Source: Escherichia phage Pollock. From it: a stretch of DNA of 64,000 bases. Below, piece after piece: positions 16,152 through 61,491 of this stretch. The position numbers and the translations under genes were made by a program. The stretch's first letter is position 1. Each line of letters starts with the position of its first letter. Under the pieces are notes generated by a model. The model worked only from the letters and a program-made list of their open reading frames with translations. It was not told the origin of the DNA and made no database searches. Location of the stretch: the sequence record NC_027381.1; one strand, given 5' to 3'.

Positions 16152-16396
16152 TGGATATCGCATTTGTAGTTTCCAAATTGATTGTTACAGAGTACACGTT
16201 GCTTAGACAATGGTGGCCTGAACAATTACGTCAATCCAGATATGTAGATAATGGAATGACTAGAACTTACTTCTTAGATACACATCCATCCCCTGAACTT
16301 CAAGAACTCATAGAAGAGTTACATAAGTTTGGGAGAGAGTATCGACTTATAGATTTAAGAGGAGTGGAAATAGATAATGCGTCATATAATCTTTGA
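16151..16396 (+). CDS. hypothetical protein
   Basis: 81-aa ORF. Confidence 0.35.
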   Translation: MDIAFVVSKLIVTEYTLLRQWWPEQLRQSRYVDNGMTRTYFLDTHPSPELQELIEELHKFGREYRLIDLRGVEIDNASYNL

Positions 16397-21307: not shown

Positions 21308-22294
21308 ATGAAGTTAACCAATAACACTAACATCGCATTGTCGATGGCAGTATGGTTAGCTCAAGATGATTATGACTATATTGAAAAACCTAACTACATC
21401 TCTGCTACCAGTCTATTAAAGAGTGTTCGACAGTTAGTTCTAATGAAACGTCTTACAAGCGTTTCTAACGCATCAACTGATGTAGCTGACCGAATCTCTA
21501 ATCGTATGGGTTCTGCCTTTCATGATGCGATTGAAAGAGCGTGGAAGGGTAATTATCAACAGTCTCTTAATGCTCTTGGTTATCCAAAAAGGGTTATTGA
21601 ATCAATTCGTATTAACCCAACTCCTGAAGAGTTAAATGAAGATGTAATTCCTATTTGGTTAGAACAGCGGGTTGAAAAGGAATTCAAAGGATGGATTATC
21701 GGAGGAAAGTTCGACATGGTTATGGAATATCGCTTAAGAGATGTTAAGTCTACTAGCGTATTCACATACATGAACAAATCCAATGATGAAAAATTCCGTA
21801 TACAAGGAAGTATTTATCGTTGGCTCAATCCAGAAAAAATCAAACATGATTACATGTACATAGATTATCTCTTTACTGATTGGTCAGCTAATCAAGCCAA
21901 AAGTAATAAGGATTACCCACAGCAGAAGATTTTAGAATACCCCTTACAGTTGAAATCAGTACATGAAACGGAGCAGTATATTGCCTCCAAACTTGCTGCT
22001 TTGGAGAAGTATAAAGACTCTCCTGAACCAGAGTTACCTGAATGTACAGAAGAAGAGTTATGGCGTGCTAAACCAGTTTATAAGTACTACAAAAATCCTA
22101 ATTCAACGGGACGTAGTACAAAGAACTTTGACAACCTGCACGATGCCAATTTGAGATTAGCTCAGGATGGTGGAGTAGGAATTGTTGTTACAGTTCCGGG
22201 TGAAGTTAAAGCTTGTAAACACTGTCCTGTCTATTCTCTTTGTACACAAAAAGATAGGTATCTGGCATCAGGAGAACTTGTCATTTCAGATTGA
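21308..22294 (+). CDS. PD-(D/E)XK-type nuclease with C-terminal Cys cluster (Cas4/RecB-like exonuclease)
   Basis: 328 aa; GKFDMVMEYRLRDVK (D...E...DxK-like); C-terminal four-Cys cluster PECTEEE ... CKHCPVYSLC. Confidence 0.45.
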   Translation: MKLTNNTNIALSMAVWLAQDDYDYIEKPNYISATSLLKSVRQLVLMKRLTSVSNASTDVADRISNRMGSAFHDAIERAWKGNYQQSLNALGYPKRVIESIRINPTPEELNEDVIPIWLEQRVEKEFKGWIIGGKFDMVMEYRLRDVKSTSVFTYMNKSNDEKFRIQGSIYRWLNPEKIKHDYMYIDYLFTDWSANQAKSNKDYPQQKILEYPLQLKSVHETEQYIASKLAALEKYKDSPEPELPECTEEELWRAKPVYKYYKNPNSTGRSTKNFDNLHDANLRLAQDGGVGIVVTVPGEVKACKHCPVYSLCTQKDRYLASGELVISD

Positions 22295-27489: not shown

Positions 27490-30400
27490 TTAGTACAGAC
27501 TTACTAAAGGATGGATAGTAAATCCATTTAGTGCTGTACCCATTCCAACGTTATAACTTAAGCTACCTGTTGCTAAGTTTGCTTCCATGATATTAGGTAA
27601 TCCAGATTCAGCAGTATTACCAAACATAAGGAATAATGCTCTTAATGGGTTTTCCCTAATCGTTCTTAAGATAATTTTCTGAATACGAATCTTATAGTTT
27701 AAGAACCATGTTAAACCAATAGCATCCAAATAGAATCTGGTGCGACTAGGTAATATGTCATAGTTCACAAACTCATCCATTACTCTATTCAATGCACTAT
27801 CTTTATCCATTGGATTACGAGAACGAGTAGTTAAATGCTTATATAGAGAGTATTTAGCAACGAAGTCACCATACTGAATTGAACGATTCAATAAGAAGTA
27901 CACATTACTATCTCTAGATAAAGTGATTTCTTTAGCAACACGTTTAACACTATCTGGAATACCAGAAGTGTACTCATCCATTTTAGTAAGTAGTTTATCC
28001 TTCAAAGAGTAATCATCCTGCTGACCTAAATCTTCTGCGATAGTTGGTAACAAACCAGCTTTAATTAAATCAGCTACTGGGTTACGAGCTTGAGAATCTT
28101 TAAGTTCAGATATTTTTCTCTGATACTCTTCAGCCATTCTTGGATTATGGTTTACAGCCAGATAATGAGAATACTCGTTAATTAATTTCTCATTTCTTCT
28201 GTACTCCTCAGCAGCCAGTACAGCAGTAGACATATCTTTAGCCATAGTAATTGGGCTAATACCTACCGTAGCCAAATGTACCATGTTAGATAAGATATTC
28301 CCTGCGGATACAACTACTGAACGAACTACAATCCAGTCCTTCATTTCCTTCACAAATTCCATCAAACCACGTTCACCAAGTCTTAGATAGCGTGCAGCAT
28401 TCTTACCTAAGAATGTTTCTGCAATGTTTACAAATGCTTTCTGAAACTCTTTAGAGAAATTGGTTTGACCAGTCCATAGATTCAGTACAGAAGGTTCACG
28501 ATAACCAAATGCATTATTCAGTAAATCCTTACGTACTTTAATTTTCCCATTAGGCCAAATACGTTTGGCTGCTTCTTTCATCTCAATAGGCATCAGTTCA
28601 TAGATTTCTTTTAACTGATGGTCTGTAGAGTTTTCATCTATAGTGATGTATTGATATGCTTTTCCTTCTCTAGCATCCTTCTTATAGATTTCACCAAGTC
28701 TTTCTAAAAGCATCTCATTGTATTTGGCAGCCTGAATCTCTTCAGCAATACGACCTTCCCAAGCAGCTAATACTTTAGTGAAGTCATTATCTACATTTAA
28801 TTGAGCTTCTCTATTAGCTCTTGGCATTTGGTACGAGTATCCCATTATTGAACCAGCGCGGTTTAAAACAGGCTGCATCTGTCCATCATAGTTCTGAGGC
28901 ATTGGTTTAGAAGCATCAAATAAATCATTGATAGCAGCTTGTTTATTAGCTGATACCTTGTTCTTTTCTGATGTCTTCCATGCACCCGGGGTCATAGAAC
29001 CATTAACACTTCTGCCTGTAATTGGGTTTACTCCACCTACGGTGCTTTGCAGGGTACTCATTACACCAGCAATCCAACGAGGTTCACCACCATTGTTAGA
29101 ATGGTAGTAGTACATTGGAGTTTTATCTGTATCTGCTGGGTCACGTTTAACTTGAGCACCTCTGGTATAGCCTCTACGAGATAAGCTTGGTTCATCCTTA
29201 ATGGATGCAATAATTACTTTTTTGTTTGGGTCAGTGATAGTAGGAGTAAATCCTTTAACTGCTGCCAAAGAATAGTTATTACCAGATTTAGCTAACTCAG
29301 CGCCTTTAAGGCTTTCATAGTATTTGAGAGTAAAAGTCATACCATTATTATCTGGTTCACCTTTAGTCATCTCTCTACTGATTACATTACTTACTGTTTC
29401 TTTATCTGCTTGAGATAATTCAGTAAGAGCACTCAATGAAGCCAAGGTATCAATTAACTGAGTAGCTATTTCAACAGCATCATTTGATGGTCTTTCTCTA
29501 CCAGTACCAATCAAACGTGCAATAGCAGCAGCATTTGATAATTGGTATGCCAGTGGAGATACTCCATGCACCATCTGTTTAGCTAAACCATGAGCAGATT
29601 TAATATAGAATGCAGAGTTTTGAGCACCTGCTTTTTGTAACTGAGATTCTATTAAATCTATCTCTTTAGCTAACTCATTTGGATTAGTTAATAATTCATT
29701 TAAACGAACCAAGTCATACCCATTAGCAAACAGGTATGCCATATCTGTATTGGCAACTACTCTCTGAATAGCCTCTTTCTCATTTTGGTTTAAAGAAACA
29801 AACGTTTTTTCAATCATACCCGGAACCATCTCACGAATAATCTGACGTGCTCTATCAGCAGCCATATTTTTCTGAGTTAATAAGGTATGAATACTACTGT
29901 TGGTTTCATTAGAACCAATAAATTCATTAATGAGTTCAGCGATAGTACCTAGTTTTCCATCCTGATGAATGGTCATATAAATGTGAGTTATAGCCTCACG
30001 TACATCATGAGCATCTTGTTCATTAAATACTGCTGCTCCAACAGTAATACCAAATGCTACAGACTTAGGTACTTTCTTCTCTACTTTGCTTAACTGCTTA
30101 CGAATAGAGTTACCAAAAGCTCTCAACCTATCTTGAGTAGCTTCAGTGATTTCTTCTGTACCTCTACCAATTCTGGTAAAGAGATTATCTCTTGCCTGAC
30201 TATCTACATGACTAATGTTCTTAGCCAGTTTAGATAAACGAGAAGCAATATTTGTATCTCTTAAAGATTTAGTAGCTAAGCCAGATAACCAAGTAAGAAT
30301 CATATTAGTTAAATCACCAATACGTTCTCTAAGAGATGTAGCCTGATTCTGTCTGGTACGTTTAACACTAATTTGAGACAGCTTATTTCTTAATTGTTCA

Positions 30401-33400
30401 TTGGTTTCAGCCAATGCAATAAAGTTAGCAAGTCTGTTAGTACGACCAGTAGCATCAGTAGTAATAGCTGTATTGCCAAATACTGCATCATATCTTTGTT
30501 TAGCTAATGCCATTTCATTAGCAGAACGATTGTTAGGGTCAGTTAAGAAATCTTCTACTTTTAAGTTTTCTCTGGCTTGCGAGTACAAACTACGTGCAAC
30601 CAGAACACTTGGAGAAAAGTTCTCTAACCCATATTTCATAGATACTTGCAGCATCTTGAATACAAATGCTTCTTTCTCACTCATGTTAAAACCATGAGCA
30701 ATTAATGCATTTGGTGAGTCATCAATTTCTGGGTCAATGCTATCTACCAAAAGTTTATCTTGGTAATGCTCTAAACCAGATATTTGCTGACCAGTATTTT
30801 TAATTACTTTAATGATATTGGATTGTAAGTAATCCAGAGTATCTGTTAGATGATTTACATGTTCCTGAGATGCTTTACCTGCATCCAATTTATTAAATAA
30901 TGTTTCTGCATCTAATCTATTAATGTTGTTAGCATTTTGCTGAGCATAGCTTGTTGTATCTCTGGATTTAACAGGATTGGTAGCATCAGCCAAAGCAACG
31001 GTATGGCCTAACAAACGAGTCCAGTAAGAAGTAATGTCTGGATTAGAGCCAATAGCAAACAGACGTTTAATAGATTCAGCTAATTGCTTAAGTACCTTTG
31101 TTACAGTTCCTGTAATAGTTTTTTTAGTCATTGCATCAATCATCCTTGGGTTAACAAGACCCCATGCAATGAATTCAGCAGTAGCCTGAGCCATATCACC
31201 AGAAGCAATATGATTATTAATCAAGTCTACAACACTATCTGTTTCAGGATTCGTACTAGAATACTCATTAACAAATTTAGTCATGAGTGCTTCTATTGAA
31301 GCAATCTCTACTTTTTGAGCAGGAGTTAATGCTTCTGGATTACTGTAATAATTGTGAACAGCATTAGCAGTAGCAGCATGAATTAACTCATGCATTACAG
31401 TCTCAATAGACTGAGAACCAATATAGATATTCTGTCCCTGTGTAAGCCCTAAGAATGAGTTATTAAACTCAACCTTAGTATCAGGTGTCATTTCCTGTTG
31501 AACGGCTGAGAGAGCTTCTGGAGAGCCTACATACACATTAATATCTTCAGGAATAGAGTTAGCAATCTTATCTAATACGAAGCTAGTAATTCTATTTTGA
31601 CGAGAAGGTAAAGATTTAGCTGCTTCTTTAATAGCAGCAATCACATCACCTTTAGACAGTACTTTAATTCCATCATGTCCTGATACATTTCTTCCATTTT
31701 TAGCCAATGCTTCAATCATTTGACGAGTAGGAGGAATAGTTACTCTACCTTTAGGGAGAGATACTGATTCCATAGTAGGAAGTTCTGTATTAGCAATTAA
31801 CTGTTCTAAAGGAGTTCTGGTATCAATTGCTTCTTTATCAGTCTGCTTACCATTCTGAACATTGAATGGAATATTAGCCCCGGTCATTTGGTTAATAGAA
31901 GTAACTGCTTCTCCTCCTAATAAACCTTGTTTAATAGCAGTTTGAGTAGCAGCTTCTTTTTTAAGAAGTGTAGTAAATGCTTCTAACACTTCTGGGCTAG
32001 TAGGTGAATTGGTTTCATCTGCTCCAATCATTTCCATAATTCCACGGAAAGATTGTTCCAAACGTGTATCTGCATCTGGACCTAATTCTTCAGTTAGATT
32101 TACTCCTTCCATCGCTTGCTCAAAACGATTAGTAAAATCTTGAAGTAAATCAAATTCATTCCAACTTTGCAGAACACCTTGGTTAATAGCTTGAGAACCA
32201 GTATCTAAATGAGCTACAGCATTAATATAACCATCAAATACGTTAAGGGCATTGTTAGGGTTAATATCACGAGCAATAGCCTGCATAGCTGCTTCTACAG
32301 ATTGAACCAATAAAGGCATTACACGAGTACCTGGTTCAGTATAAGTAGGAGTATCTACACCAAAAGTAGCACGACGCATTTTACCATCCAGATTTCTACG
32401 TCCTCTGGATTCCATACGATAAATATCAAATGTGACTCTACCTTCTTCACTCAGAAGAATACCTTCATTTAATTTAGCTGCATCAGTATTACCAGCAGTA
32501 AACCAAGAGTTAAAGATAGGCATCTGAGTAATCAGTTCTCTCTTAATCTCGTTATATTGCTGCTGAGAAAGAGATTCATACTTAGATAATTTACCTGCTT
32601 CTCTAAGTTCTTTTTCTTTAGCTTCTACTACTTTATTCCAACGAGACATGAATACTTCATGCATTACAGCAGCAGCATAAACCATCATCTTGCCGCGATT
32701 GATTACAGTACCAAATTCATTAGCAATTGATTCATTTACTGCTGCACCAATACCAATTTTGATGTTTTGGGTAATTGCTTCAATCTGCTCGCTAGTAAAC
32801 TCAAATTTAGTTACATCTTTTCCTAAATTGATAGGAGCACCAATTTTTACCCAAGAACCATTACGAAATACTTGAGCAGTAGTTAATTCATTAGTTGTAT
32901 TGGTCAAATCATTAATATGAGCAATTGCAGCATCTCTATCTTCCTGATTAGTAGCTGAATCTACTGCTCTTAATGCTTCTGTGATTGCTTCGTAATAACC
33001 ATTAGCAATACCCATAGCAATCTTTCTATTGATTGCATTAGCACCACCAGAATAAACAGTAACTGTTACTGGATTTTTAAGTAATCCTCGACCTATTTGG
33101 ATTGGATGTTCTACATCCTCTCCTTCAACAATATTTACATCACCAATTAGTTTTGATGCAGCAAGAGTTACCCTTACCTGATTTTTCAAGCGTTCAATAT
33201 CTCTCATCTCTTTTTGTTGGAATTGTCGAGATTTATTTTTAAGGGCAGCTAACCTGTTAGGGATATTACTGTAAGCATCCATCATGTTGTTGATGTATTG
33301 CTGTGAGCCAGCAGCAGCAGTTTTATACAGGTCTAAGAATCCCGGTTCTTCAGCAGCATCATTGTATAGACGGTCTGATTGCCCATAGAACAAACCACCT

Positions 33401-36400
33401 TTCTCTAACTTATTCAGTAAATCTTGGTTCACGTCTTTTAAACCAAGCTGAACAATAGAGTTAAATGGTCCATTAGTTACACCATCAAGCTCCAGCATCA
33501 CATGAGTCTGGAATGAGGATTTACCTTGTTCTACTGCTAATTCATATTGAGCTTGTGCATATAAAGCATGGAGTGTTTTAGTTTTCTCCTTACCTGCTTT
33601 TACAGCTTCTAAAAGAACCTCTGCATCAGCATCACTAATTGAATCTTGGTTTTCAGCAGCTTTTAGAATATTGATAGCATCTCTAAATAAACCAGTACTG
33701 ATAGCTTTATTTAGCTTATCTCTGGCAGTCTCAGAAGAGAGTTTATCAACAGCAATATCCAATCCTTGAGCAATAGCATAATCAAGAAATGCACCATGTT
33801 GAGGATTGTTGAGTTCAATAGTAGAAGGTTCAACAGTAATTAATTCACGATGTAATTTAGCTGACTGAGGGTTTAAATCCCCTGAGTTAAGCATCATACG
33901 GAAGTTACTAATTACGTTATATGCAAAATAAATAGGTGTATTAGCCAGAGGTAATCCAGCTTCTGACATACGAGTTAAACCGTTAATCAGAGTATTAATA
34001 TCTCTTTCAATAGTACGGTTAGAACCTTGAATGGATTTCAGATGAGCACCATTAGCATTCTCTTCTGATTGAATGCCTAACATTCTACCAATCCATTCTG
34101 TACCTAATTTATCCAGCATAAGGTCATGAAGACCCATGTTGATATAATGAGGTTGTTTACTGGCTTTGTTACGTGCAGCAAGCATCTTTTCAGGAATATC
34201 CTGACCACCACCATTTTTAACTTTAGTGCTCTGACCTTTTGGTGGAGTACCAAAGTATGCTCCTGCTTTTTCTCTCTGAGGATTAGTTAATTGACCTAAG
34301 AGGTCATTGGAATCCTTCATTAAGTCTACTAAACGTTTAGCAGCTTCAGATTCTTCATTCATACGAATGAATATACGAGAGTTTTTAATGTTGGATTCAT
34401 TTACTTTAGTAGAACCAACAGCAGCTAATTCACTGTTTTTAACAACAGATTCTTGAACCAGATTAGCATTAATCATTACGTTCAATACTTCAGTTGCTAG
34501 TGCTTTAGATACAGCATCACGAACAGAGATAGGAGTATTAGGGTCAGCATTAATACCTAAGATTCCAAAAATCTCTCTGCTTAAATAATCAATAACATTT
34601 TGCCGGTCTGTACCTACATTACGTAATAAATCTGTTTGCTCTACAGTAGGTTTAGTTTTGTTATCTAAACCAAGAATATCCATTACTGTACGGTCATCAT
34701 TGAATGTAGTTTCAACTGCATTACGTACAAACCACTGCATCATACCAGCAGTCATTGCTTCAATTACTGGCTGAGGTAAGAAGTAAACATTTTCACCATT
34801 GATATTTCTTACTTCACTAAAATATTCGACAGGGTATGTTTCCCAGAAGATACGTTGACCTTCAGGAGTTAATTTACCCCAAGATTGAATTAACGATTGT
34901 TCAATAGCAGGGACTAAACCAGCAAATTGACGTAGTACTTTTACTTCTTTCTCTGTTACTTGTTCTGGTTTAATAAATCCTTTAAACAGATTTTGAATCT
35001 GAGTAATAGGATTAGAACCATTGGTAAAAATGTTATTAAGTCTTCCAGAGAAATTAGAAGTTCTCAGGAATGCAGAACGTTTACCTGTAGGTTTAAACCA
35101 TTTTTTAACTTGGTTAGTAGCCTGATAGTTCTTATCTGCTTCTGAAGTAGATTTAGCATCAGAACGTACAGTTTCTGATTGCAGACTACTCAGAATATCG
35201 AAATTAACACCTTTATCTAAACCAAGTTCTAATTGAGACTCATCCATTAAATCAGTCTCAACTTCAGTTGGTTTTTCCTGAATCTGAATTTCAGATTCAA
35301 CTACATCTGGTTTCTCAAATAGTTCTCCTTGAACTGGAGTACTAGTAGGAGCTTCTGTAACAGCTTCTGGCTGTGTTTCTACAGTCTCAGAAGGTGTTTG
35401 TACCTGTTCTTCAGAAACCTGTGCAGAAGCCTCTATAGGAGCTTCTGATTCTTGAGTTGAGACTAATTCCTCTGTAGCAACTGGAGCAGATTGTGCTGGC
35501 ACAGATACAGGTTTACCATCTACTAATTGACTAGTAATGGTATGTGCTTGACGAACAGCATTAGCATCATTACGAATTTCTTTGATTAATCCTTTAGAAC
35601 GTACCGGATGATACGTCATAGGATTTCCATCTAAAGATAAATATGGTTGTCCTGTAGTTGGATTAATTACTTCTACAGGTTGATTACCAGTAAAGTTTTG
35701 AGCAGCCTGTTCAAATGCATTAGCTTTAGTTTCCATGTGCTCTGCAAAACGGTTTAAATGGTCTAATAAACCTTGAGCACGAGCAGTATCCCCTAAAGAT
35801 AATGCACGGAAGATACCTTGCTGATACTGTTGAATACCAATAAATCCATCAGAACCTTTACGTACATCTTCTCCTACTTGGCTCATTGCTTTACCAGTAG
35901 CAGAGATAATTTTTAATTTATCTACATCCTGCTGGTTCAAACCAATGGTTTCTGCTGAATTAACTAAACGGTCAGCAACTTCTGGAGTAATAGAAGATGC
36001 ATCTAAATTCATTTGAGCCAGAACAGATTTAATGTTCTTTTGTACTTCAGGAGATTTATAAGTTTCTGGAGTAATTTCAGAAGGTAAAGACTCCATAATC
36101 TTATTCATTTCTTCTGGAGTCAGTCTGAAGCTTTCAGCAGTAGTTTTAACTGCTTGTACATCAGGATGGTTCAGCACAGCATTGATATTATCAATAGCTG
36201 TTTGATACTGAGCTTTCTCTTCTTCTGGTGCAACTTCCATCTGTGCTTGAATTTGAGGTAAAGCTTCCTCATAAGCAGAGATAACATTATTACCTACAAC
36301 AGCTAAATCTCTACGAGAAGCTTCATCCAAATTACGTTCTTTAATTGCACGGGAAATTCTCAAAATAGAATCTGGAGAACTAATTTCCTCTTCAGGAATA

Positions 36401-38103
36401 GCTTTAAATACTTCTTTAGCAGCAGGTTCAGTAACAGCATCAACAGCTTTAACTACAGTTGGTTCTGCTACTGCTTCAGCATCTGTTTGTTGTACTGTTT
36501 GTTTAACTGATTCATTAGCAGCAGATACAGTATTCCTAAAAGATTGTGCTCTGGATTCTGCTTTACGGGCTTCTCTTGCTTCAAATGCTTCACGACCTTG
36601 TTGAGCACCTTCTTGAATTGCTCTAGGTGTTTCACTGATAGCCGAGCCAAAAGCACCCATACCCGCACCAGCAATAGCAGACTCAACAGCGTTTGAACCA
36701 ATGTCTTCAGCAAGGGACTGAGATTCATCAGCAGAAGTCCGTATGCCGAGGTTAGAAGCAAATTGACCAGTAATCCCTTGGGAGGTTTCTTCAATAGTTT
36801 CTTTGAAAGCATTGTTAAGAACTCGTGAGGAAGCACTAAAGAATCCCGTACCTTCAAGTAAGGAAGGAGTGAATATACGAGATTCAAATGGAGCAGCAAC
36901 CTTACCAGTCAGAGCACCAAGAGTACCTGCTACCAAAGCAGTGACATTACCTGTTTGAGTACGTACTTGTCTTCTGGCTTGCTCTGGAGACATACCATCA
37001 GCAATTAAATCACGATACATAGGTGATTTTTCTGCTAATTGCTTATCAGTCATTCCATCAATCTGGTCTAATGTTTGTTGGGCATTAGAACCTGCTTCTT
37101 GGAAACCTACATAACCAACCAATGCTCTTTCAGCAGCATCCTGAAGACGTTTTCTACCATACTGAGTTGAAGCTAGCTTGGTAGCAAAATCTGCACCATA
37201 TTCTTCAGCTAATTGTTTAAATGCTCCACGAGAAGCAATCTTACCTACTAAACCACCAGTTAATATATCTGGAGCAGATTCAGCAATAAGTGTAGTTAAT
37301 GCTCCCGGAGCACCACCATATTGTTCAGCAGTATTAACAAACTGACGTAATTGTTCTTTAGCCCCTGCAACTAAAGGATTATCACCTTTAGCTATATCAG
37401 CAGCTTCACGAGCTTCAGCACCTTGTTTAAATCTCTCTTTTTCTGCTTCAATTACAGATTGTTCATATTGAACACGCGGAGAATATTGAGAACGTTGTTC
37501 TTCAACATACTGTTTTAATGGTACATCAATACCCACTTGTTCTAATAAAGTAGGTTGTCCTAATTGTTCTTCTTGACCAGTAACATTAGCAATTAAATCT
37601 TGAGTATTTTGTAATGCTAAGTTACCCAAACCAGTAACAAATCTAGCTGTATTACCTGCCCATATCTGTGCAGCATTACCTACATCAGATAATTCTATAG
37701 GAGCATTTTCAAATATATCTGTATTGGCTTGAGCAATATTTAAAGACAGTTTGTCTCTAGCTGCCTGAGGACCATATTTCTGCTGTAATGCAGATAAAGG
37801 CATATCTCTTAAATCAGCCAAATATTGCTCAGAAGGATTAGTTTGAGTAGCAGTAGTAGTAGTTCTTTGTCCAGATAGCATCTGATTCATCTGTTCTCTT
37901 GTATATTTAGGACCAGATTCTGCTAACTGGATTGCTTGCTGTGCTCTTTGATACTGTGGAGAACCTACAGCAAAGTCTATTTCTACCCCGGGTACTGGAG
38001 TACCTAACTCTAATTTCTTCTGTTGAGTAGCTATATTTAATTGTTGTGTTTTTTGTAAGGCAGCATTAGCTAATTCTTGCTGTTTCTCAAATCCGGTGGC
38101 CAT
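27490..38103 (-). CDS. giant virion-encapsidated RNA polymerase (N4 vRNAP-like)
   Basis: single uninterrupted 3,537-aa ORF; size and position at the head of the late structural block fit N4-type architecture; catalytic motifs not verified by eye. Confidence 0.8.
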   Translation of the reverse strand: MATGFEKQQELANAALQKTQQLNIATQQKKLELGTPVPGVEIDFAVGSPQYQRAQQAIQLAESGPKYTREQMNQMLSGQRTTTTATQTNPSEQYLADLRDMPLSALQQKYGPQAARDKLSLNIAQANTDIFENAPIELSDVGNAAQIWAGNTARFVTGLGNLALQNTQDLIANVTGQEEQLGQPTLLEQVGIDVPLKQYVEEQRSQYSPRVQYEQSVIEAEKERFKQGAEAREAADIAKGDNPLVAGAKEQLRQFVNTAEQYGGAPGALTTLIAESAPDILTGGLVGKIASRGAFKQLAEEYGADFATKLASTQYGRKRLQDAAERALVGYVGFQEAGSNAQQTLDQIDGMTDKQLAEKSPMYRDLIADGMSPEQARRQVRTQTGNVTALVAGTLGALTGKVAAPFESRIFTPSLLEGTGFFSASSRVLNNAFKETIEETSQGITGQFASNLGIRTSADESQSLAEDIGSNAVESAIAGAGMGAFGSAISETPRAIQEGAQQGREAFEAREARKAESRAQSFRNTVSAANESVKQTVQQTDAEAVAEPTVVKAVDAVTEPAAKEVFKAIPEEEISSPDSILRISRAIKERNLDEASRRDLAVVGNNVISAYEEALPQIQAQMEVAPEEEKAQYQTAIDNINAVLNHPDVQAVKTTAESFRLTPEEMNKIMESLPSEITPETYKSPEVQKNIKSVLAQMNLDASSITPEVADRLVNSAETIGLNQQDVDKLKIISATGKAMSQVGEDVRKGSDGFIGIQQYQQGIFRALSLGDTARAQGLLDHLNRFAEHMETKANAFEQAAQNFTGNQPVEVINPTTGQPYLSLDGNPMTYHPVRSKGLIKEIRNDANAVRQAHTITSQLVDGKPVSVPAQSAPVATEELVSTQESEAPIEASAQVSEEQVQTPSETVETQPEAVTEAPTSTPVQGELFEKPDVVESEIQIQEKPTEVETDLMDESQLELGLDKGVNFDILSSLQSETVRSDAKSTSEADKNYQATNQVKKWFKPTGKRSAFLRTSNFSGRLNNIFTNGSNPITQIQNLFKGFIKPEQVTEKEVKVLRQFAGLVPAIEQSLIQSWGKLTPEGQRIFWETYPVEYFSEVRNINGENVYFLPQPVIEAMTAGMMQWFVRNAVETTFNDDRTVMDILGLDNKTKPTVEQTDLLRNVGTDRQNVIDYLSREIFGILGINADPNTPISVRDAVSKALATEVLNVMINANLVQESVVKNSELAAVGSTKVNESNIKNSRIFIRMNEESEAAKRLVDLMKDSNDLLGQLTNPQREKAGAYFGTPPKGQSTKVKNGGGQDIPEKMLAARNKASKQPHYINMGLHDLMLDKLGTEWIGRMLGIQSEENANGAHLKSIQGSNRTIERDINTLINGLTRMSEAGLPLANTPIYFAYNVISNFRMMLNSGDLNPQSAKLHRELITVEPSTIELNNPQHGAFLDYAIAQGLDIAVDKLSSETARDKLNKAISTGLFRDAINILKAAENQDSISDADAEVLLEAVKAGKEKTKTLHALYAQAQYELAVEQGKSSFQTHVMLELDGVTNGPFNSIVQLGLKDVNQDLLNKLEKGGLFYGQSDRLYNDAAEEPGFLDLYKTAAAGSQQYINNMMDAYSNIPNRLAALKNKSRQFQQKEMRDIERLKNQVRVTLAASKLIGDVNIVEGEDVEHPIQIGRGLLKNPVTVTVYSGGANAINRKIAMGIANGYYEAITEALRAVDSATNQEDRDAAIAHINDLTNTTNELTTAQVFRNGSWVKIGAPINLGKDVTKFEFTSEQIEAITQNIKIGIGAAVNESIANEFGTVINRGKMMVYAAAVMHEVFMSRWNKVVEAKEKELREAGKLSKYESLSQQQYNEIKRELITQMPIFNSWFTAGNTDAAKLNEGILLSEEGRVTFDIYRMESRGRRNLDGKMRRATFGVDTPTYTEPGTRVMPLLVQSVEAAMQAIARDINPNNALNVFDGYINAVAHLDTGSQAINQGVLQSWNEFDLLQDFTNRFEQAMEGVNLTEELGPDADTRLEQSFRGIMEMIGADETNSPTSPEVLEAFTTLLKKEAATQTAIKQGLLGGEAVTSINQMTGANIPFNVQNGKQTDKEAIDTRTPLEQLIANTELPTMESVSLPKGRVTIPPTRQMIEALAKNGRNVSGHDGIKVLSKGDVIAAIKEAAKSLPSRQNRITSFVLDKIANSIPEDINVYVGSPEALSAVQQEMTPDTKVEFNNSFLGLTQGQNIYIGSQSIETVMHELIHAATANAVHNYYSNPEALTPAQKVEIASIEALMTKFVNEYSSTNPETDSVVDLINNHIASGDMAQATAEFIAWGLVNPRMIDAMTKKTITGTVTKVLKQLAESIKRLFAIGSNPDITSYWTRLLGHTVALADATNPVKSRDTTSYAQQNANNINRLDAETLFNKLDAGKASQEHVNHLTDTLDYLQSNIIKVIKNTGQQISGLEHYQDKLLVDSIDPEIDDSPNALIAHGFNMSEKEAFVFKMLQVSMKYGLENFSPSVLVARSLYSQARENLKVEDFLTDPNNRSANEMALAKQRYDAVFGNTAITTDATGRTNRLANFIALAETNEQLRNKLSQISVKRTRQNQATSLRERIGDLTNMILTWLSGLATKSLRDTNIASRLSKLAKNISHVDSQARDNLFTRIGRGTEEITEATQDRLRAFGNSIRKQLSKVEKKVPKSVAFGITVGAAVFNEQDAHDVREAITHIYMTIHQDGKLGTIAELINEFIGSNETNSSIHTLLTQKNMAADRARQIIREMVPGMIEKTFVSLNQNEKEAIQRVVANTDMAYLFANGYDLVRLNELLTNPNELAKEIDLIESQLQKAGAQNSAFYIKSAHGLAKQMVHGVSPLAYQLSNAAAIARLIGTGRERPSNDAVEIATQLIDTLASLSALTELSQADKETVSNVISREMTKGEPDNNGMTFTLKYYESLKGAELAKSGNNYSLAAVKGFTPTITDPNKKVIIASIKDEPSLSRRGYTRGAQVKRDPADTDKTPMYYYHSNNGGEPRWIAGVMSTLQSTVGGVNPITGRSVNGSMTPGAWKTSEKNKVSANKQAAINDLFDASKPMPQNYDGQMQPVLNRAGSIMGYSYQMPRANREAQLNVDNDFTKVLAAWEGRIAEEIQAAKYNEMLLERLGEIYKKDAREGKAYQYITIDENSTDHQLKEIYELMPIEMKEAAKRIWPNGKIKVRKDLLNNAFGYREPSVLNLWTGQTNFSKEFQKAFVNIAETFLGKNAARYLRLGERGLMEFVKEMKDWIVVRSVVVSAGNILSNMVHLATVGISPITMAKDMSTAVLAAEEYRRNEKLINEYSHYLAVNHNPRMAEEYQRKISELKDSQARNPVADLIKAGLLPTIAEDLGQQDDYSLKDKLLTKMDEYTSGIPDSVKRVAKEITLSRDSNVYFLLNRSIQYGDFVAKYSLYKHLTTRSRNPMDKDSALNRVMDEFVNYDILPSRTRFYLDAIGLTWFLNYKIRIQKIILRTIRENPLRALFLMFGNTAESGLPNIMEANLATGSLSYNVGMGTALNGFTIHPLVSLY

Positions 38104-50585: not shown

Positions 50586-53441
50586 TTACTTATTCTCAAG
50601 TGCATCTATTCTACTAACCAATACATTAACAGTTTCTGCTAATGAATCAATTTGATTAATAGTAGCTCTCAGACACCACCAAAGAAGTTCTTCTTTTCTA
50701 AAGCGATATCGAGTACCTGCTTCTAATGCAGGACGTACTAGAACTTTTTGAGATTCTCTTACAAGTACTAAGGTTGTACCACTTAATAGCTCTCCTTCAT
50801 CAGAGTAGATAGCAGGTTGTACAGGTACTTCTTCATACTCTGCTGGAATCTCTTCATATTCTGCTTCAACAGCATCCCAAGAATCTAAACAGAAAGCACT
50901 GTATTTTCTCCAATCCAGTCCATGTTTAGTCATGATATCAATTGCTGCTTGCACAGTAGGACCAGAATGTAATCTGGCATCATCACCTTCTTCTTCAATT
51001 CGTTGTAACCATCTCCATACAGAAGGTAAACGAGCTATTTCTGCAAATGCAGCAATCTCTGATGAATTGATATCTCTTGGTTCATCTTTCAATGTTGCAT
51101 CAGATACAACAGTCGGTGAATTATTAAAGTAAGCATTACTGAATGCTTTACTAGAAGAACCAATATTATAGGTATTGTTAGTTGAAGGTAAGAAGTTACC
51201 TTTAATATCTGTATCCATCTGCATGAATGCAGTGCCGTTACTACGGGCTGCAATTACATAAGCGTCAGCAGAATCGTCATAAATACCCAGATTCCCGGAT
51301 GTTGATACCTGGAAAGCTCCCGCCTTCAGCGTGGTACTGATAGTCATGCGCTTCTGGGTTTTGTCATCCGATTTAATATTCACGCCCTGCAGGTATGCCA
51401 CATTCCAGCGATTTGGCGATGACCCCAGATTCATTGCCTTGTCCTGGTCGGGATGAAATGACGGCGAGACCGGACTCAATAATACAGACCAGGTCTCGCT
51501 GCCATCGGTACAATAAAGCCTTGTGCGCCCCGCCGACTGAGTATCGTTCATTGAGTAAAGGTTAATCCCGCCACCGCTCAACAAATTCACGTCAGCGCGT
51601 ATTTCCAGACAATCGTGCACGGCGTTCAGGCGGTGTTTCCACTGAACGAAGCGGCCTGTGTATTCTCCGGTTCGGAACGCATCCCCGAACAAACGAAAAA
51701 CAGCAGCAGAAGTGTCTGTATCCGGAGCCTCCTTTCTGACCTCAAATAACGGGCGATGCGAGCGCAGATTCTGCTCATAGGCTGCCACCTGGAAGTCTTC
51801 ATTGGGTGACAGGGCAATATTTACAGCATTGGGACATAGAAAAAGACTGGCATGACTATCAGGATAAGCTACACCAAAAATTGAATACCCAGTACCATCA
51901 TAAGGTTCTACAGAGACAATAGCTTTAGTACGCTTTGTTCTTGTACCACGAGTATAAGTCTTTGTTGAATCCCATTGACTTGCATTACTTGTTCCATAAG
52001 TAGTAGGTGTCCAATAAGTTGGGTTTACTGGAGAATACCCGGAAAAATTAGCTGTTCTTGCAGCAAAGTATTTTCCTTCAAATAAAACAACATCTGCTGT
52101 GGCATACCAAAAATCCATATCAAGCAGATATAGTTTACCTTTATATAAAGCTAATCCTTCTGGTTCTTGTAAACATGGATAACCTAATTCTGCATTACCA
52201 AGCATTTTCTCACGTCCATACTTAGCACGCACACCATCTACATTAAACCATCTAATAATCTCACCTGTGAATAAATTATAAATAACAATACGGTGGGTTA
52301 AGAAAACACCATTGTATCCATAATATACATATAGATATTGGTCATCACTTGCCATCCCTTGGAAAGATTGAGCCACCATAGGGATATTATTTATATGAAA
52401 TCTATATTTAAATGTTAAAGAAACACGGTCAAATACATAAATTATACGGTGGTCATCTCTGTTATACTGTACGTGAACAGGCTCACCTATAGTTTCAATA
52501 ACTAATGTTTTACCACTTTCAGATAATGCAAGTGTGATAATTTCATCGTTGTTATAGAAGTCTGATTTAAATACTTCTACTCTAGTAATATTTGATGTAG
52601 TAGTATCTCTTCCTTTCCAATTAATTATATTGATACCTTTACTGTCTTCAGTAGGTAAATACAAAATTACACCACCATTCTCATATATAGCCCCGATACT
52701 CTGATGACCTATATCTTCAAATACTGGAGAGAAAGAAATAACAGTAGGGTTTTCATTGTCCCCTTCTGGATTAAATGTTGTTTCAACAATTCTAACTCCA
52801 CCTGTTACTGGTTGATGGATAAACATACGTAAACCATCTGGAGTTTCACAAATACAGAATCCCTGACTTAAATTTTCTGCACCTTCAAAAATTCCTGAAT
52901 AATCAATATCATGTACAACTTTATGTTGTAGAGCTATATTATCAACAATAGGGTTATGTGTTGCTAAAGTTCCTACAGGAACCCATGCACCAACATGAAT
53001 ACCTCCACTTTTTTCTGGAGTAGAATCTGGTTCAACTACTTTAGGTAGTTCTCCATCCCATCTATATAAACCAGAAATACTTGTAAGTACTTCATTCTTA
53101 GTAGTTATAGTAGTTCCTGTAGTAAATGAACCAGGTACAGTTATAAACTCTTCTCGTTGTGCCCCTAATTCACCTAAATCTACAGAACCTTGTGAATGTA
53201 CAAGTACAGCATCAGTACCAAGACTGATGGCAGTAGTACCAGAAGAAATGTCAGTAGGTAAGGAATAAGCTCTTTGTGTTGTCTTATCATAAATAACCTT
53301 ATAACCACCTAAATCTACTCCTTCTGAGAAGTAGACTACTTCACTCTGTTTAACACCAAACTTACGAGCAATAGCTTGTTTGTTGGTTAAGATTCCAGTT
53401 GAACCTCTACCACCTTGGCTGAACATTTCGTTCATATACAC
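50586..53441 (-). CDS. tail fibre protein with C-terminal intramolecular chaperone domain
   Basis: 951 aa; C-terminal SDATLKDE ... IAAFAEIARLPSVWRW ... coiled-coil end; contains GC-rich segment 51240-51860. Confidence 0.65.
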   Translation of the reverse strand: MYMNEMFSQGGRGSTGILTNKQAIARKFGVKQSEVVYFSEGVDLGGYKVIYDKTTQRAYSLPTDISSGTTAISLGTDAVLVHSQGSVDLGELGAQREEFITVPGSFTTGTTITTKNEVLTSISGLYRWDGELPKVVEPDSTPEKSGGIHVGAWVPVGTLATHNPIVDNIALQHKVVHDIDYSGIFEGAENLSQGFCICETPDGLRMFIHQPVTGGVRIVETTFNPEGDNENPTVISFSPVFEDIGHQSIGAIYENGGVILYLPTEDSKGINIINWKGRDTTTSNITRVEVFKSDFYNNDEIITLALSESGKTLVIETIGEPVHVQYNRDDHRIIYVFDRVSLTFKYRFHINNIPMVAQSFQGMASDDQYLYVYYGYNGVFLTHRIVIYNLFTGEIIRWFNVDGVRAKYGREKMLGNAELGYPCLQEPEGLALYKGKLYLLDMDFWYATADVVLFEGKYFAARTANFSGYSPVNPTYWTPTTYGTSNASQWDSTKTYTRGTRTKRTKAIVSVEPYDGTGYSIFGVAYPDSHASLFLCPNAVNIALSPNEDFQVAAYEQNLRSHRPLFEVRKEAPDTDTSAAVFRLFGDAFRTGEYTGRFVQWKHRLNAVHDCLEIRADVNLLSGGGINLYSMNDTQSAGRTRLYCTDGSETWSVLLSPVSPSFHPDQDKAMNLGSSPNRWNVAYLQGVNIKSDDKTQKRMTISTTLKAGAFQVSTSGNLGIYDDSADAYVIAARSNGTAFMQMDTDIKGNFLPSTNNTYNIGSSSKAFSNAYFNNSPTVVSDATLKDEPRDINSSEIAAFAEIARLPSVWRWLQRIEEEGDDARLHSGPTVQAAIDIMTKHGLDWRKYSAFCLDSWDAVEAEYEEIPAEYEEVPVQPAIYSDEGELLSGTTLVLVRESQKVLVRPALEAGTRYRFRKEELLWWCLRATINQIDSLAETVNVLVSRIDALENK

Positions 53442-53487: not shown

Positions 53488-56400
53488 TTAGTAAAATTTC
53501 TTTTCAGTAGAAGATTCTAAAACAGAAAGACGTTCTTCTATTCTTTCTAATCTTCTGCGTAGATAAGCAGCCTCAAGCCATAAGCATTGGTCTGCACGTA
53601 TTCCCCAACGATTACCAGCCTCTCTTACGAGAACTTTTTCACCAGTATCATATTCTTCCTCTACTTCTGTTTCCACACCATCAATAATGGTAGATACTTT
53701 TCTAGTTGCTAATACTGGCTCATAAGAGTCTTCCCATTCGTCATAACAAAGAAGACCAAATTTAGTTCCATCTAAACCATGAGCAAGGAAAGCATCTCTT
53801 ACCTGTTGAGCTATTACACCAAAATGCCAACGAGCATCATCATTTTTAAGTTTGATAGCAGAGAGCCAACGGAAAGCTATGATTCTTACATCTTCCCAAG
53901 CATCCAGAATTGCATCTCCATCATATTCTGAAGACAGAGATGAGCTAAGTTCACTGGTAGTTACTGGCTCTGTTTTCTCTCTTTCATCAGATGTATTTAT
54001 TGTTCCAGATACAGCATAAACCTGAGTAGGTCTATTATCTGCAACACCAAGACTATAGGAGTTATCCAGATAAGGATGCCAATGACCATTTGGACTTACT
54101 TTCCATCTCCATGTGTCATTACTTCCCAAATGTAAATCAGCTCCATTTGCAGCCATTAAAGCTACATTGGAAGTGCTCATGTACATCTGGAAATAACCAA
54201 CGCCTTTTCTCTGCCATTCATAAAGCAAGCCTGTTTCCTGTTCGTTGTTGAACTTTAATGCTTTTATAGGTGAATTTTCTCCCCATGTTGTATCACCCGA
54301 ATAAATTACATGAGGAACCACCTCAGGATTATCAGAGATACATATTTCTTTAGATGGTAGAGATAGCGTTCTTTTATCTCCTGCACCAAGCGCATAAATC
54401 AGAATGGTGCGTCTGGTTGCCCCCATAACATCAGAATGCTCAGATACTATTGTTACCGATGGATATAGAACACCATCGTAATCAACAAAATGCATTCCTT
54501 CTGATTCACGGAATGTAGGAGTAGAACCAATGATTCTAGGTAAATCAGTATCACCTAAATCAGAGATAGCTTTCCGTACATCATTACCTAACAAGTCACA
54601 ACTGGATAAGTACTGGGTTTGTCCAAATGTAATATTCCCGCAATACATATACAGATGCGAGCCATCAGAACAAAATCCACTAAGTGATGTGGTTTCATCA
54701 CCACCGACTTGTGAAAGTTGAAGAGTAAACTCATGAGTACACATAGATGAATAATCACCTTGTGTATCAAAAATATCTGTAGAGAAAATGCGGAATGTTT
54801 GATTGTTGTAGTCAGCATTATCAGTAAATCTAACAATCAACCATTTACCATCAAGAGAAATAGTAGGTGTAGTTGAGCTACCTGCTGTACGAGTTTCTTC
54901 TACAACTCTAAACAATTCAGGCGCATCAATTTCACCGTCTGTGTTACTTCTCCAAGAAAATCTAACAATCCCGTGAGAACCGCCTACAGAAAAATCAAAA
55001 TCAGTATGGGTAGTAGAACCTGCTGGTGTATCTGGTGCTGTAGTCCATAACTTAATTGCATTATTTAAATTCTGTACTGCTATACCCTGATGACCCAATC
55101 TGTCTTCAGGTAACATAAAGTCAGTAGAACTATTAATAATTCTTGAGTCAGCAGAATACTTATTCCAGATAGAAACAGTAGTGGCATTACCATCTATTTC
55201 TGTATTGTGGTTAGAGTAATAAGCCCTATCTACAGGGTCATATGTGAATGTCTGTAGTGTTCTTATTTGTCCACGACCCTGAGCAATAGGAATGAATCTT
55301 ACTGCTGAATTAGATTCTCGACCTATAGTATAAACATCCCATGCTGGCTTCTTATTAGTAAGAAGCTCCCCATTCATAGGAATGGATTTTCCGTTTATAA
55401 GCCAAGTACCATTAATATAGATATTTTTAAAGAAGGTTTTAGTAGTGGCATATACTTTGCCATCCATATCTATAACCTTGGATGTAACATCTGATTCTAG
55501 TTGCTCAAATGCACTAGTATCATCAGTAACACCATTACCTACTATTCCCCATGCACGAGGGTCATACTCATCTTTCCAACGAGCTATCTGTAAATCAGGA
55601 TATAAAGTAGCACCATCAGGATTACTAATTTTATCCTGAAGGTCTAAACCAGTAATTACTTCATCTAAGATAACTACTACGTTACCGGGAGTATAAGTAA
55701 GTTTTCCATCTGCTACTGTAGAGATATAAACATTTCTTAAAGCAGTAGGTAACCTATAGATTTTCTGTTCATCTACAGAATAGATAATAGTTTTATTATC
55801 TAATGCCTGACTGGTATTAGTACTTAAAATTACTTCTGAATTTTTTACATTAGTGGCTCTTGCTACCTCTTGAATAGTACGGTCAGCAATCTCAATAACT
55901 TCTTGCTCACCTCCAATCTGAATAATCAAACGGTCATTAGCAACCAATGGTTCAGTAAGAGTAATGGTTTGAGCATTAGCATCTACAAAGTAGGATTGAG
56001 TTTGTAATCCCTTATAGAATCTCAAACCATTCTTAAATACCGCAGGAATATCCTGAAAGGTATATGGAATATTGATAGTAGTTTCACCACCAACAGCAGC
56101 ACCTTCATTGTATAACCAGTTAAAAATAGTCCAGTTATCAATATTTGGATTATCAGGTACAGCAGGAGTACCACTAAGAAGTAAAACTACTTCATCTCCT
56201 TCCTCTAAAGCTTGAGATAATGTAACCAAGTTATTGGAAATAGAGAATTGAAATCCATAACCAACAGATTGCATGTAGCCATTAACAATAATAAATGGAA
56301 CACTTACAGTTCCATTGGGTACTGTAATAGTAGTTTCTCCACCTAAAGCAAAGCCACTCTTATAAACATAAGGAATGTAGGAACCACCACCATTTCCACC

Positions 56401-56754
56401 AGACGAGGATGTACCTACAACAATCCAACTACCTGTAGCTCCAGATTCATTAGGAATGATTCCAGAAGTATCGTTTTCTACATACAAATAATCTGTATAG
56501 ATTATGTAACTAGAATCAAAAGTATTATAGATACGTGCATACTTGACAGATACAGGAAGTGCTTTTAATTCATCTTCTGAAGTAACACAAATAAGTACTC
56601 CATACTTATTTAGAAATTCATAGATAAAGTGAATTTCTCCTAAGCTATCATATACAGCTTTAACTACGTCATATGCTGTACCAATAAACTTTTCTACTAA
56701 TGGAGCATTGTTACCACAACAAGTATTAGTAGTTCTGATTGACATTATACCCAT
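53488..56754 (-). CDS. large tail / receptor-binding protein with C-terminal intramolecular chaperone domain
   Basis: 1088 aa; C-terminal SDEREK (S-D-x-R-x-K-like) ... ILDAWEDVRIIAFRW ... LERIEERLSVLE. Confidence 0.6.
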   Translation of the reverse strand: MGIMSIRTTNTCCGNNAPLVEKFIGTAYDVVKAVYDSLGEIHFIYEFLNKYGVLICVTSEDELKALPVSVKYARIYNTFDSSYIIYTDYLYVENDTSGIIPNESGATGSWIVVGTSSSGGNGGGSYIPYVYKSGFALGGETTITVPNGTVSVPFIIVNGYMQSVGYGFQFSISNNLVTLSQALEEGDEVVLLLSGTPAVPDNPNIDNWTIFNWLYNEGAAVGGETTINIPYTFQDIPAVFKNGLRFYKGLQTQSYFVDANAQTITLTEPLVANDRLIIQIGGEQEVIEIADRTIQEVARATNVKNSEVILSTNTSQALDNKTIIYSVDEQKIYRLPTALRNVYISTVADGKLTYTPGNVVVILDEVITGLDLQDKISNPDGATLYPDLQIARWKDEYDPRAWGIVGNGVTDDTSAFEQLESDVTSKVIDMDGKVYATTKTFFKNIYINGTWLINGKSIPMNGELLTNKKPAWDVYTIGRESNSAVRFIPIAQGRGQIRTLQTFTYDPVDRAYYSNHNTEIDGNATTVSIWNKYSADSRIINSSTDFMLPEDRLGHQGIAVQNLNNAIKLWTTAPDTPAGSTTHTDFDFSVGGSHGIVRFSWRSNTDGEIDAPELFRVVEETRTAGSSTTPTISLDGKWLIVRFTDNADYNNQTFRIFSTDIFDTQGDYSSMCTHEFTLQLSQVGGDETTSLSGFCSDGSHLYMYCGNITFGQTQYLSSCDLLGNDVRKAISDLGDTDLPRIIGSTPTFRESEGMHFVDYDGVLYPSVTIVSEHSDVMGATRRTILIYALGAGDKRTLSLPSKEICISDNPEVVPHVIYSGDTTWGENSPIKALKFNNEQETGLLYEWQRKGVGYFQMYMSTSNVALMAANGADLHLGSNDTWRWKVSPNGHWHPYLDNSYSLGVADNRPTQVYAVSGTINTSDEREKTEPVTTSELSSSLSSEYDGDAILDAWEDVRIIAFRWLSAIKLKNDDARWHFGVIAQQVRDAFLAHGLDGTKFGLLCYDEWEDSYEPVLATRKVSTIIDGVETEVEEEYDTGEKVLVREAGNRWGIRADQCLWLEAAYLRRRLERIEERLSVLESSTEKKFY

Positions 56755-60637: not shown

Positions 60638-61491
60638 AATTAGTGCTCTGGTATATTATGTTTAACTCTTAGGTTATGCACAGTATTACAACAGATTGGG
60701 TCATCTGAAATCAGAGCACTAATCCTATATGAACCAGGTATGAACAACTTACTTAGTATTAACAATTCCGCATAGGGGTATGTTTGGGTTGTTGGTGGTA
60801 AGTAGCTGGTTAGAATCCAGCATGGTTCATTAATTAATTGCCATTCTCTTATGGCGATTGGGATAGCACGCTGGCTCTGCTTAAACCAGCATACAACAGG
60901 TAAGAGCACTGAATGTTGACTGGCTTAGCATACCAAATCCAACATTGTTGCCGCAGTGCTCTTACCGTTGTAGCGACCCTGCAACACCGAAGACCGAAGC
61001 TTTTCCTTCCCTGCTTTTTGGGAATAGCACTTCAAACAGGTATATCCTGTATATGTATCAAAGGCGTAAAAACTGGAGATACCAGAGTACTAGAACTCTG
61101 TTACCAAACTCAGGGAGTGATTGGCCTAACCAATCCAACATCCTATCAATGAGTGTACTGAGATAACGTGCGGAGGTTTACACTGTAGCCGGTGTAAATA
61201 GAGAAGACGGCAAGATAGCTACTTGTTCTTAGTGCACTCTTTGATAGTTTTCGTGAGCGACTTTGCGGACTTTTTAGAAACTGACCTCAAAGATAAATGC
61301 AAACGATGATGTTGTTCTGATGGCGGCGTAATAGCCTATAAATCAGCAAGGTCTTCCGATTCCTTGTAAACAAATTCGGCGCACTGGCCCGGTGTGATTA
61401 ATAATGGGCAACTACATCCCTCTAAGGGTATTTAATTAAGTATTCTTAAAGGGATGGGTACTCTCTATCTCCGTAAACATGTCAACTCTTT
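60638..61491 (+). other. ~0.85 kb apparently non-coding, structure-rich region (candidate structured RNA or cis-acting DNA element)
   Basis: no convincing ORF; multiple long inverted repeats (13-bp perfect GGTAAGAGCACTG/CAGTGCTCTTACC at 60899-60965); visibly more GC-rich than flanks; bounded by tRNA-Leu and a strong terminator. Confidence 0.3.

Follow-up and report, generated by a model that had tools for sequence, protein, structure and literature searches.

Mosaic genomes arise by relaxed homologous recombination between phages and prophages, including defective prophages, and temperate phages have been shown experimentally to take DNA from defective prophages (De Paepe et al. 2014, PMC3945230). 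The survey that accompanied this work, which included 26 virulent genomes, reported mosaics only among temperate or defective phages and no recent mosaics between virulent and temperate phages of Escherichia coli (PMC3945230). Fiber and tailspike modules are also exchanged horizontally between phages and prophages that are otherwise unrelated, as described for P2 H, Mu S, lambda stf and T4 gp37-38, and further reports deal with tailspike modularity (PMC10408124), the shuffling of protein fragments (PMC10684548) and fiber recombination in N4-like Litunavirus phages (PMC9786124). Here, a stretch of 64,000 nucleotides (nt) from Escherichia phage Pollock (NC_027381.1) is considered; it is referred to as the window, and all coordinates count from its first letter as position 1. 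The subject is the tail fiber/spike (receptor-binding protein, RBP) gene of this phage, a minus-strand open reading frame (ORF) of 951 residues (50586-53441), and a prophage-type tract of 612-635 nt within it (51202-51836, minus strand; residues 536-747) with a GC content of 0.52 and a GC content at third codon positions (GC3) of ~0.6. This GC-rich island is very probably the product of a recent homologous gene conversion (patch recombination) from a prophage allele into the fiber gene of a virulent N4-like phage.

The tract resembles the mosaics of De Paepe et al. (PMC3945230) in that the segment is >90% identical to a prophage gene, is flanked by sequence of lower identity that still exceeds background ("HR traces", where HR denotes homologous recombination) and is absent from the close relatives of the recipient; in both cases the donors include defective prophages, and tail fiber genes are among the loci exchanged. 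As in known module exchange, the protein combines a lineage-specific N-terminal adaptor with an exchangeable distal module, and recombination has fallen between conserved motifs. Most such exchanges concern whole modules and were deduced at the protein level, whereas the Pollock tract is a sub-domain, like-for-like conversion that is seen before amelioration and has breakpoints placed within 10-23 nt. It is also set apart from the mosaics of the survey by its N4-like recipient (a group regarded as virulent), by flanks of 58-76% identity and by junction identity of ~14-22 nt. The conversion tract from prophage to virulent phage is real, clean and recent; the kind of event is already known, and neither a new mechanism nor a phenotype is established by it.

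An earlier note on this DNA had proposed, from the letters alone, that positions 51240-51860 form a GC-rich island inside the fiber gene and that the island is a domain acquired horizontally from a higher-GC phage or prophage fiber. In 200-nt sliding windows, a GC content of 0.33-0.40 gives way to one of 0.47-0.535 between ~51200 and 51900, after which it returns to lower values. The mean of the whole window is 0.362 (standard deviation 0.033; 400-nt windows), and the peak of 0.54 at 51416-51815 is the strongest composition outlier of the 64 kb, with z = 5.4 as compared with z ≤ 3.0 for the runners-up. A two-state likelihood fit within the gene placed the island at 51215-51815, with a GC content of 0.522 inside and 0.353 outside and a log-likelihood gain of 28.3. 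Third codon positions carry the strongest signal, with a GC3 of 0.47-0.63 in the island versus 0.03-0.27 in the rest of the gene; in round figures, it is ~0.6 for the tract versus ~0.15 for the phage-type codons of the fiber gene. Composition along the gene is clearly not uniform, and the island is real: each of the ends originally proposed lies within ~40 nt of the homology breakpoints (51202-51836) described below, and the peptides quoted in its support are all encoded by the 951-residue minus-strand ORF, at residues ~580-686, inside the tract. A 63-residue ORF in an alternative frame (51626-51817) was treated as a by-product of the GC-rich stretch.

When the island alone was used as a blastn query, no match was found among 50,697 phage records and 72,556 plasmids. 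By contrast, it matched chromosomal prophage tail fiber genes in 87 of 5426 complete E. coli genomes, and every one of the 93 E. coli matches was a chromosomal prophage gene. The donor is therefore visible only in bacterial chromosomes. The best prophage allele is 98.7% identical to the tract over 634 nt (8 mismatches) and another is 98.1% identical; the 11 alleles examined span 97.6-98.7% identity and have few polymorphic sites among them. The donor-type gene is carried by a Mu/SfV-like prophage at prfC, by P2-like prophages and, in E. coli B REL606, by a defective P2-like prophage that lies beside ogrK/yegQ and in which the gene itself is intact (L021, NC_012967.1 2105251-2108109). E. coli C (H98) holds a donor-type allele according to the match list, where the gene match alone was seen. 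The GC3 of the prophage fiber gene is 0.4-0.8 over its full length. Given that the composition of the tract equals the uniform composition of the donor and is an outlier in the recipient, the direction of transfer runs from prophage to phage. A donor-type 41-mer had no match in 100,044 species-representative genomes, a collection with one genome per species that says little about E. coli strain diversity. One Logan protein match, probably P0048, differs from the prophage protein by T-to-I, A-to-V, H-to-Y and P-to-L/F changes, a pattern equivalent to C-to-T at the DNA level, as if the sequence had been assembled from bisulfite-converted or deaminated reads; it was left out of alignment A2.

At the nucleotide level, Pollock is only ~80% identical to the sequenced phages closest to it, namely Shigella phage B2 and Salmonella phages S5 and FSL SP-058/076. 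Closer relatives were found as contigs through a protein search, which returned two full-length homologs with an N4-type adaptor: two Logan Sequence Read Archive assemblies (L018 and L019) and one European Nucleotide Archive metagenome (L020). Gene order in all three is as in Pollock, with 92.5-96.2% identity over 5.7-17.4 kb. Their fiber genes (L018:1752-4604, L019:918-3770 and L020:8001-10853) are 96-100% identical to that of Pollock at both ends. Across residues ~531-745, in contrast, their sequence is AT-rich (GC3 0.07-0.43) and its identity to Pollock drops to 54-92%, so the segment is not equally GC-rich throughout the group. Because these same-species relatives are AT-rich and diverged in this region, the GC-rich tract is a derived feature of Pollock and not a conserved property. 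Synonymous divergence (dS) between Pollock and the relatives is ~0.09-0.10 in the conserved 3′ part of the gene, as compared with ~0.02 between tract and prophage, which fits an event younger than the split between Pollock and these relatives.

The Pollock gene is collinear with the prophage fiber gene from residue ~162 to the C terminus, with 76% nucleotide and 78% amino acid identity. The proposal of horizontal acquisition from a higher-GC prophage fiber therefore stands (98.1-98.7% identity, dS ~0.02, AT-rich relatives), but that of a foreign domain does not, since the whole gene from residue ~162 was already homologous. The flanks of the tract are homologous yet diverged (58-77% nucleotide identity, over ~1 kb upstream and ~0.6 kb downstream), and the non-homologous N-terminal region falls to ~35-40%. 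In a codon-aligned scan, nucleotide identity to the prophage was 0.94-1.00 in ~51210-51870 versus 0.58-0.77 outside, and third-position identity at conserved residues was ~1.0 in the tract versus 0.3-0.5 outside. By the Nei-Gojobori method, dS to the prophage is 0.02-0.03 in the tract, whereas the flanks are saturated, with a proportion of synonymous differences (pS) of 0.81-0.93. In a triplet test with L020 as the phage relative, Pollock has the prophage-type state at 176 of the 179 informative sites that lie in the tract and the phage-type state at 468 of the 529 outside it (Fisher P = 2e-108; 5e-116 when L018 was used).

Both breakpoints could be mapped against related phages, to within 10-23 nt, in an alignment of Pollock, L018, L020 and the prophages. 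In gene orientation, the 5′ crossover interval (51814-51836, minus strand) lies between the last phage-type informative site at 51837 and the first prophage-type site at 51813, and it holds a 22-nt block that is identical in all alleles. The 3′ crossover interval (51201-51210, minus strand) is at the end of a conserved block encoding FMQMDTDI; informative sites of the prophage type end with 51210 and 51202, those of the phage type resume at 51201, and identity then falls to ~0.58. The extent of the tract is almost exactly that of two predicted distal β-domains, A and B, described below. Relative to the 11 prophage alleles, Pollock has seven private differences, one of which (S536C, at 51836) is at the 5′ junction. 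The six that lie inside the tract are all G/C-to-A/T substitutions (D619N, E694K, A715S, D735N and two synonymous changes; binomial P ~0.02). A 41-mer with three of the Pollock-private variants had no match in the 100,044 species-representative genomes or in JGI metagenomes.

No gaps separate the tract from the prophage alleles, no direct or inverted repeats are present at its borders, and the ORF is uninterrupted. An intein, an intron, a homing-endonuclease cassette and an insertion sequence were each considered and rejected, since the tract is collinear, gap-free and without border repeats. Exchange by an invertase (Cin/Gin/Pin) is likewise disfavored: there are no inverted repeats at the junctions and no invertase is annotated beside three of the donor genes (L001, L002 and L021), although no dedicated search with a cix consensus was made.

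The hallmarks of an N4-like podophage (Schitoviridae) are present in the window: an ORF of 3537 residues (27490-38103), taken as the giant virion RNA polymerase, matches to phrog_2166 ("N4-like RNA polymerase") and phrog_2051 (the subunits of RNA polymerase II), and a polymerase, primase and helicase of its own. N4-like phages are regarded as virulent, and this lifestyle is assumed for Pollock from its family. No integrase was found among the 10 large ORFs scanned within the 64-kb window, which covers all but ~4 kb of the 68,365-nt source contig. Pollock encodes an exonuclease of the PD-(D/E)XK type (phrog_2139; 21308-22294), and no annealing protein was found among the ORFs scanned. N4 is not known to degrade host DNA, and prophage genes would thus stay available as recombination partners.

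A sequence of events consistent with these data can be proposed. The recipient fiber joins an N4/CBA120-type adaptor to a module of propeller, distal domains and S74 chaperone, this module being an old, AT-adapted homolog of the fiber found in P2-like and Mu/SfV-like E. coli prophages. When the phage infected an E. coli host with the donor version in its chromosome, whether in an intact or a defective prophage, the diverged homologs may have paired, and ~620 nt of the phage copy (residues 536-747) would have been swapped for the prophage copy by "homeologous" patch recombination, with crossovers resolved in short conserved blocks, namely the 22-nt identical block on the 5′ side and the FMQMDTDI-coding block on the 3′ side. 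E. coli-like GC content and codons would remain because too little time has passed for drift to phage composition, and the six private G/C-to-A/T changes look like the start of amelioration in a phage with 36% GC. Sequence comparison fixes the type of donor, the direction, the extent, the recency and the lineage specificity of the tract; we infer the recombination pathway, the resident prophage as donor and any effect on adsorption or host range.

Several observations weigh against a conversion of this kind. At the 3′ junction, phage-type and prophage-type sequence match exactly over only ~14 nt, a short stretch for RecA-dependent exchange of the classical type. No donor of 100% identity is present among the 5426 complete E. 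coli genomes, the closest having 8 mismatches in 634 nt, and the pre-conversion sequence of Pollock is taken from relatives that differ among themselves in this region. The recombinant junction is, furthermore, known from one assembly only: a 42-mer across the 3′ junction matched the source contig alone in IMG/VR (IMGVR_UViG_2706796286_000001) and nothing in JGI metagenomes. The restriction of the junction to a single source contig also speaks for an assembly chimera, in which the assembler would have placed reads from the fiber gene of a host prophage in the homologous part of the phage contig, so that no real phage has the patch. The contig name is an IMG genome-type identifier and not that of a metagenome, such that host DNA may share the library, and a donor-type allele is present in E. 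coli B REL606 and in E. coli C, both of them common hosts in the laboratory. Such an artifact, however, needs two switches at exact identities of 22 nt and ~14 nt, which are below the usual k-mer sizes of assemblers. The tract is at least 8 nt away from each of the 87 E. coli alleles, and its six private changes all run from G/C to A/T, as expected inside an AT-rich phage. Moreover, three other assemblies from unrelated samples have similar prophage-identical tracts elsewhere in the same gene, and no prophage allele of the same IMG dataset was found in IMG/VR. A chimera is judged very unlikely on this evidence.

It is somewhat easier to envisage, but still improbable, that Pollock is a real recombinant whose immediate donor was the particle of a temperate phage, co-infecting or induced, or else a second virulent phage in which the tract was already present. 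Mosaicism of the gene is also seen among the phage relatives, so phage-phage recombination is active there, and occurrence of the same fiber module in two unrelated prophage types shows that it moves between temperate phages. Set against this, the tract is absent from phage records and, the source apart, from the virulent-phage contigs of IMG/VR, the E. coli matches without exception are chromosomal prophage genes, and the fully prophage-like composition, together with a dS of only 0.02, means that any stay in another AT-rich phage would have had to be brief. An indirect donor of this kind would leave the principal conclusion unchanged. That no transfer into the phage took place at all, the similarity being due to extreme conservation of the protein or of an embedded nucleic acid element, or to transfer from phage to prophage, has a negligible probability. 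Conserved peptides in the segment (GGGINLY and LYCTDG) do recur across distant relatives, but conservation of this sort does not account for synonymous sites that are ~100% identical in the tract and saturated outside it, nor for phages of the same species that are AT-rich and 54-92% identical in this region. Transfer in the reverse direction is opposed by a composition that equals the uniform composition of the prophage gene and is a 5.4-standard-deviation outlier in the phage, and the 97.6-98.7% identity of the 11 prophage alleles to the tract, with few polymorphic sites, argues against both versions.

Exchange with prophage-type alleles appears to recur in the Pollock lineage, because the relatives carry short prophage-identical tracts of their own. 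In L018 and L019 the tract is ~75 nt long (residues 610-634, 2 mismatches), in L020 ~95 nt (residues ~577-603, 3 mismatches), and in each case the synonymous sites are of the prophage type. Residues 531-610 of L020 are moderately prophage-like (identity 0.82-0.93, GC3 0.27-0.37) and could represent an older, partly ameliorated conversion. Upstream of the Pollock tract (51900-53100, residues ~116-530) the gene is a mosaic of another kind, Pollock being like L020 at residues 116-190 and 472-530 and like L018/L019 at residues 233-470; the fiber gene is thus mosaic among phages, which points to phage-phage recombination in the propeller region. A broader proposal, that conversion of RBP gene stretches from the fibers of resident prophages, including defective ones, is a repeated and ongoing process in a virulent N4-like lineage, across DNA diverged by 25-40% and with ~14-22 nt of homology at the junctions, is put forward tentatively, at somewhat below even chances. 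If it is true, prophage fibers would be a standing reservoir for the evolution of virulent-phage fibers, which would run counter to the lack of recent virulent/temperate mosaics reported for E. coli phages. The un-ameliorated tract (GC3 of 0.6 versus 0.15, with all six private changes from G/C to A/T) would then be a natural clock for the erosion of foreign DNA by phage composition.

What the Pollock tract adds to the known kind of event is an N4-like recipient, resolved breakpoints, signs of recurrence and donor alleles in standard laboratory hosts. It offers a datable, breakpoint-resolved case of an exchange class that went undetected in a systematic survey of E. coli phages (PMC3945230), a class that matters for the safety of phage therapy and for predicting host-range evolution. 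Since E. coli B REL606 and E. coli C hold donor-type alleles, such conversions could arise during routine laboratory amplification. The different short tracts of the three relatives fall within the same ~200 residues and mark a hot spot of recombination or selection, and hence a candidate determinant for the engineering of fiber specificity.

The architecture of the fiber protein was assigned from Pfam (Tail_spike_N and Peptidase_S74), from phrog_19921 ("tail spike protein"), which spans residues 135-951, and from structural comparisons; all features of the gene given here are on the minus strand. The ORF finder places the start at a GTG at 53441 (VYMNEMF...), and an ATG at 53435 gives MNEMFSQGG.... 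The true start is probably the latter, because the gene calls of the relatives and residue 1 of PDB 4oj5 begin at MNEMFSQGG. Residues 3-162 (52956-53435) form an N-terminal virion-attachment adaptor of the CBA120 TSP1/G7C gp63.1 type, with sequence matches to PDB 4oj5 (E 6e-69) and 4qnl and a PF18668 score of 64.6 bits against a cut-off of 25. This adaptor is the native N4-like part of the protein, and its identity to the prophage gene (0.34-0.40) is at background.

The adaptor is followed by a five-bladed β-propeller "platform" (residues ~171-513; 51903-52931), whose sequence is of the AT-rich phage type, with 59-77% nucleotide identity to the prophage allele. Gp45 of the Staphylococcus aureus phage phi11 (PDB 5efv) consists of a stem, a five-bladed propeller platform and a tower, and the Pollock propeller fold is superposable on that of Gp45. 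Sequence identity between the two is 15%, however, and the corresponding Pfam family, PF21311, scored below its gathering cut-off on the Pollock fiber (13.6 versus 23.7 bits). Pollock further differs from Gp45 in having the CBA120/G7C-type N terminus and an S74 chaperone, Gp45 being without a chaperone.

Distal all-β domain A (residues ~532-656; 51474-51848) was modeled by AlphaFold2 (AF2) with ten strands and a confidence score (pLDDT) of 70-88. It is rare, the full segment being found in only ~3-4 clusters among 1.84e9 representatives, and no further domain separates it from the S74 chaperone in remote relatives (alignment A1). Domain B (residues ~697-741; 51219-51353) has five strands and a pLDDT of 78-87. 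Each of the two domains has a short, widespread fiber repeat motif behind it ("P..D....LG....RW...Y"). Motif 1 (residues ~660-697; 51351-51464), FHPDQDKAMNLGSSPNRWNVAYLQGVNIKSDDKTQK, has multi-copy matches in long fiber-like proteins; it aligns with the chaperone junction of the remote relatives (alignment A1), and the Pfam family End_tail_spike matches weakly at residues 661-686. Motif 2, with the predicted mature C terminus (residues 748-779; 51105-51200), was assigned from motif matches and is phage-type, identity to the prophage dropping to 0.58 and GC3 to 0.17 in this stretch. The protein ends in an intramolecular chaperone of the Peptidase_S74 family (residues 780-951; 50589-51104), also phage-type, which starts with SDATLK (an SDxxxK start) at residue 780 and is identified by PF13884 (37.3 bits against a cut-off of 22, residues 780-842) and by sequence matches to PDB 4uw8 (T5 pb1) and 3gw6 (endoNF). 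In this region the Pollock protein is similar to the endosialidase and T5 pb1 fibers (3gw6, 4uw8), which share the SDxxxK start of S74 and an "LGxxxxRWxxxY" stalk motif before it; in contrast, the propeller and the two β-domains are unrelated to the endosialidase catalytic domain or to the pb1 tip.

The conversion alters about a quarter of the residues in the segment relative to L018 and L020 (nonsynonymous divergence, dN, 0.17-0.19), and the swapped residues are in the two distal β-domains between the propeller platform and the predicted chaperone cleavage site. The swap may therefore alter distal-fiber properties; the receptor-binding role and the host-range switching proposed in the earlier note would be candidate consequences. 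The domain with structural precedent for receptor binding is the phi11 Gp45-like propeller, which is upstream of the tract and phage-type. In four remote relatives (P0190, P0191, P0198 and P0201), the equivalent of residues ~530-690 is followed by the S74 junction and is thus the terminal domain of the mature fiber. Because of this equivalence, it is plausible that the tract domains act at the distal tip of the Pollock fiber.

The pre-chaperone stalk motif is repeated internally in the fiber (51351-51464 and 51105-51200; residues ~660-697 and ~748-786). The first copy, "...LGSSPNRWNVAYLQGVNIKSDDKTQK", is aligned with the SDxxxK chaperone start of the remote relatives. This alignment suggests that an ancestral fiber ended at the first stalk motif and was later lengthened by one more domain with a chaperone of its own; the motif itself is a widespread repeat. 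The candidate "SDDKTQK" (residue ~690) was considered as a vestigial chaperone cleavage site and found to be only partly supported: it aligns with the SDxxxK start of the remote relatives, but its surroundings are a widespread fiber repeat. It is common to all alleles and so has no bearing on the island.

The neighboring fiber/spike gene, of 1088 residues (53488-56754, minus strand), likewise has an S74 chaperone at its end. Over nt 1125-3240 it shares 80.6% identity with a "phage tailspike protein" gene of one E. coli chromosome (NZ_AP043621.1; 1 of 5426 genomes), and other E. coli genomes match it only in the ~500-nt chaperone end, at 71% identity. With these prophage-like matches, both RBP genes of Pollock have prophage counterparts. 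Elsewhere in the window, the DNA polymerase seems to be split, the plus-strand ORF at 16377-18323 corresponding to positions 509-1036 of the phrog_17 profile and that at 18803-19663, also on the plus strand, to positions 1035-1255; the ~480 nt between them (region 16377-19663) could reflect an intervening element or a naturally split gene. At least two minor GC outliers at ~11.5-13.1 kb are coding and rich in CTG, CGT and GGT, and were taken as codon bias and not as foreign DNA. A secondary GC outlier at ~60740-61340 (GC 0.455, z 2.8) looks non-coding and may be an RNA or a regulatory region.

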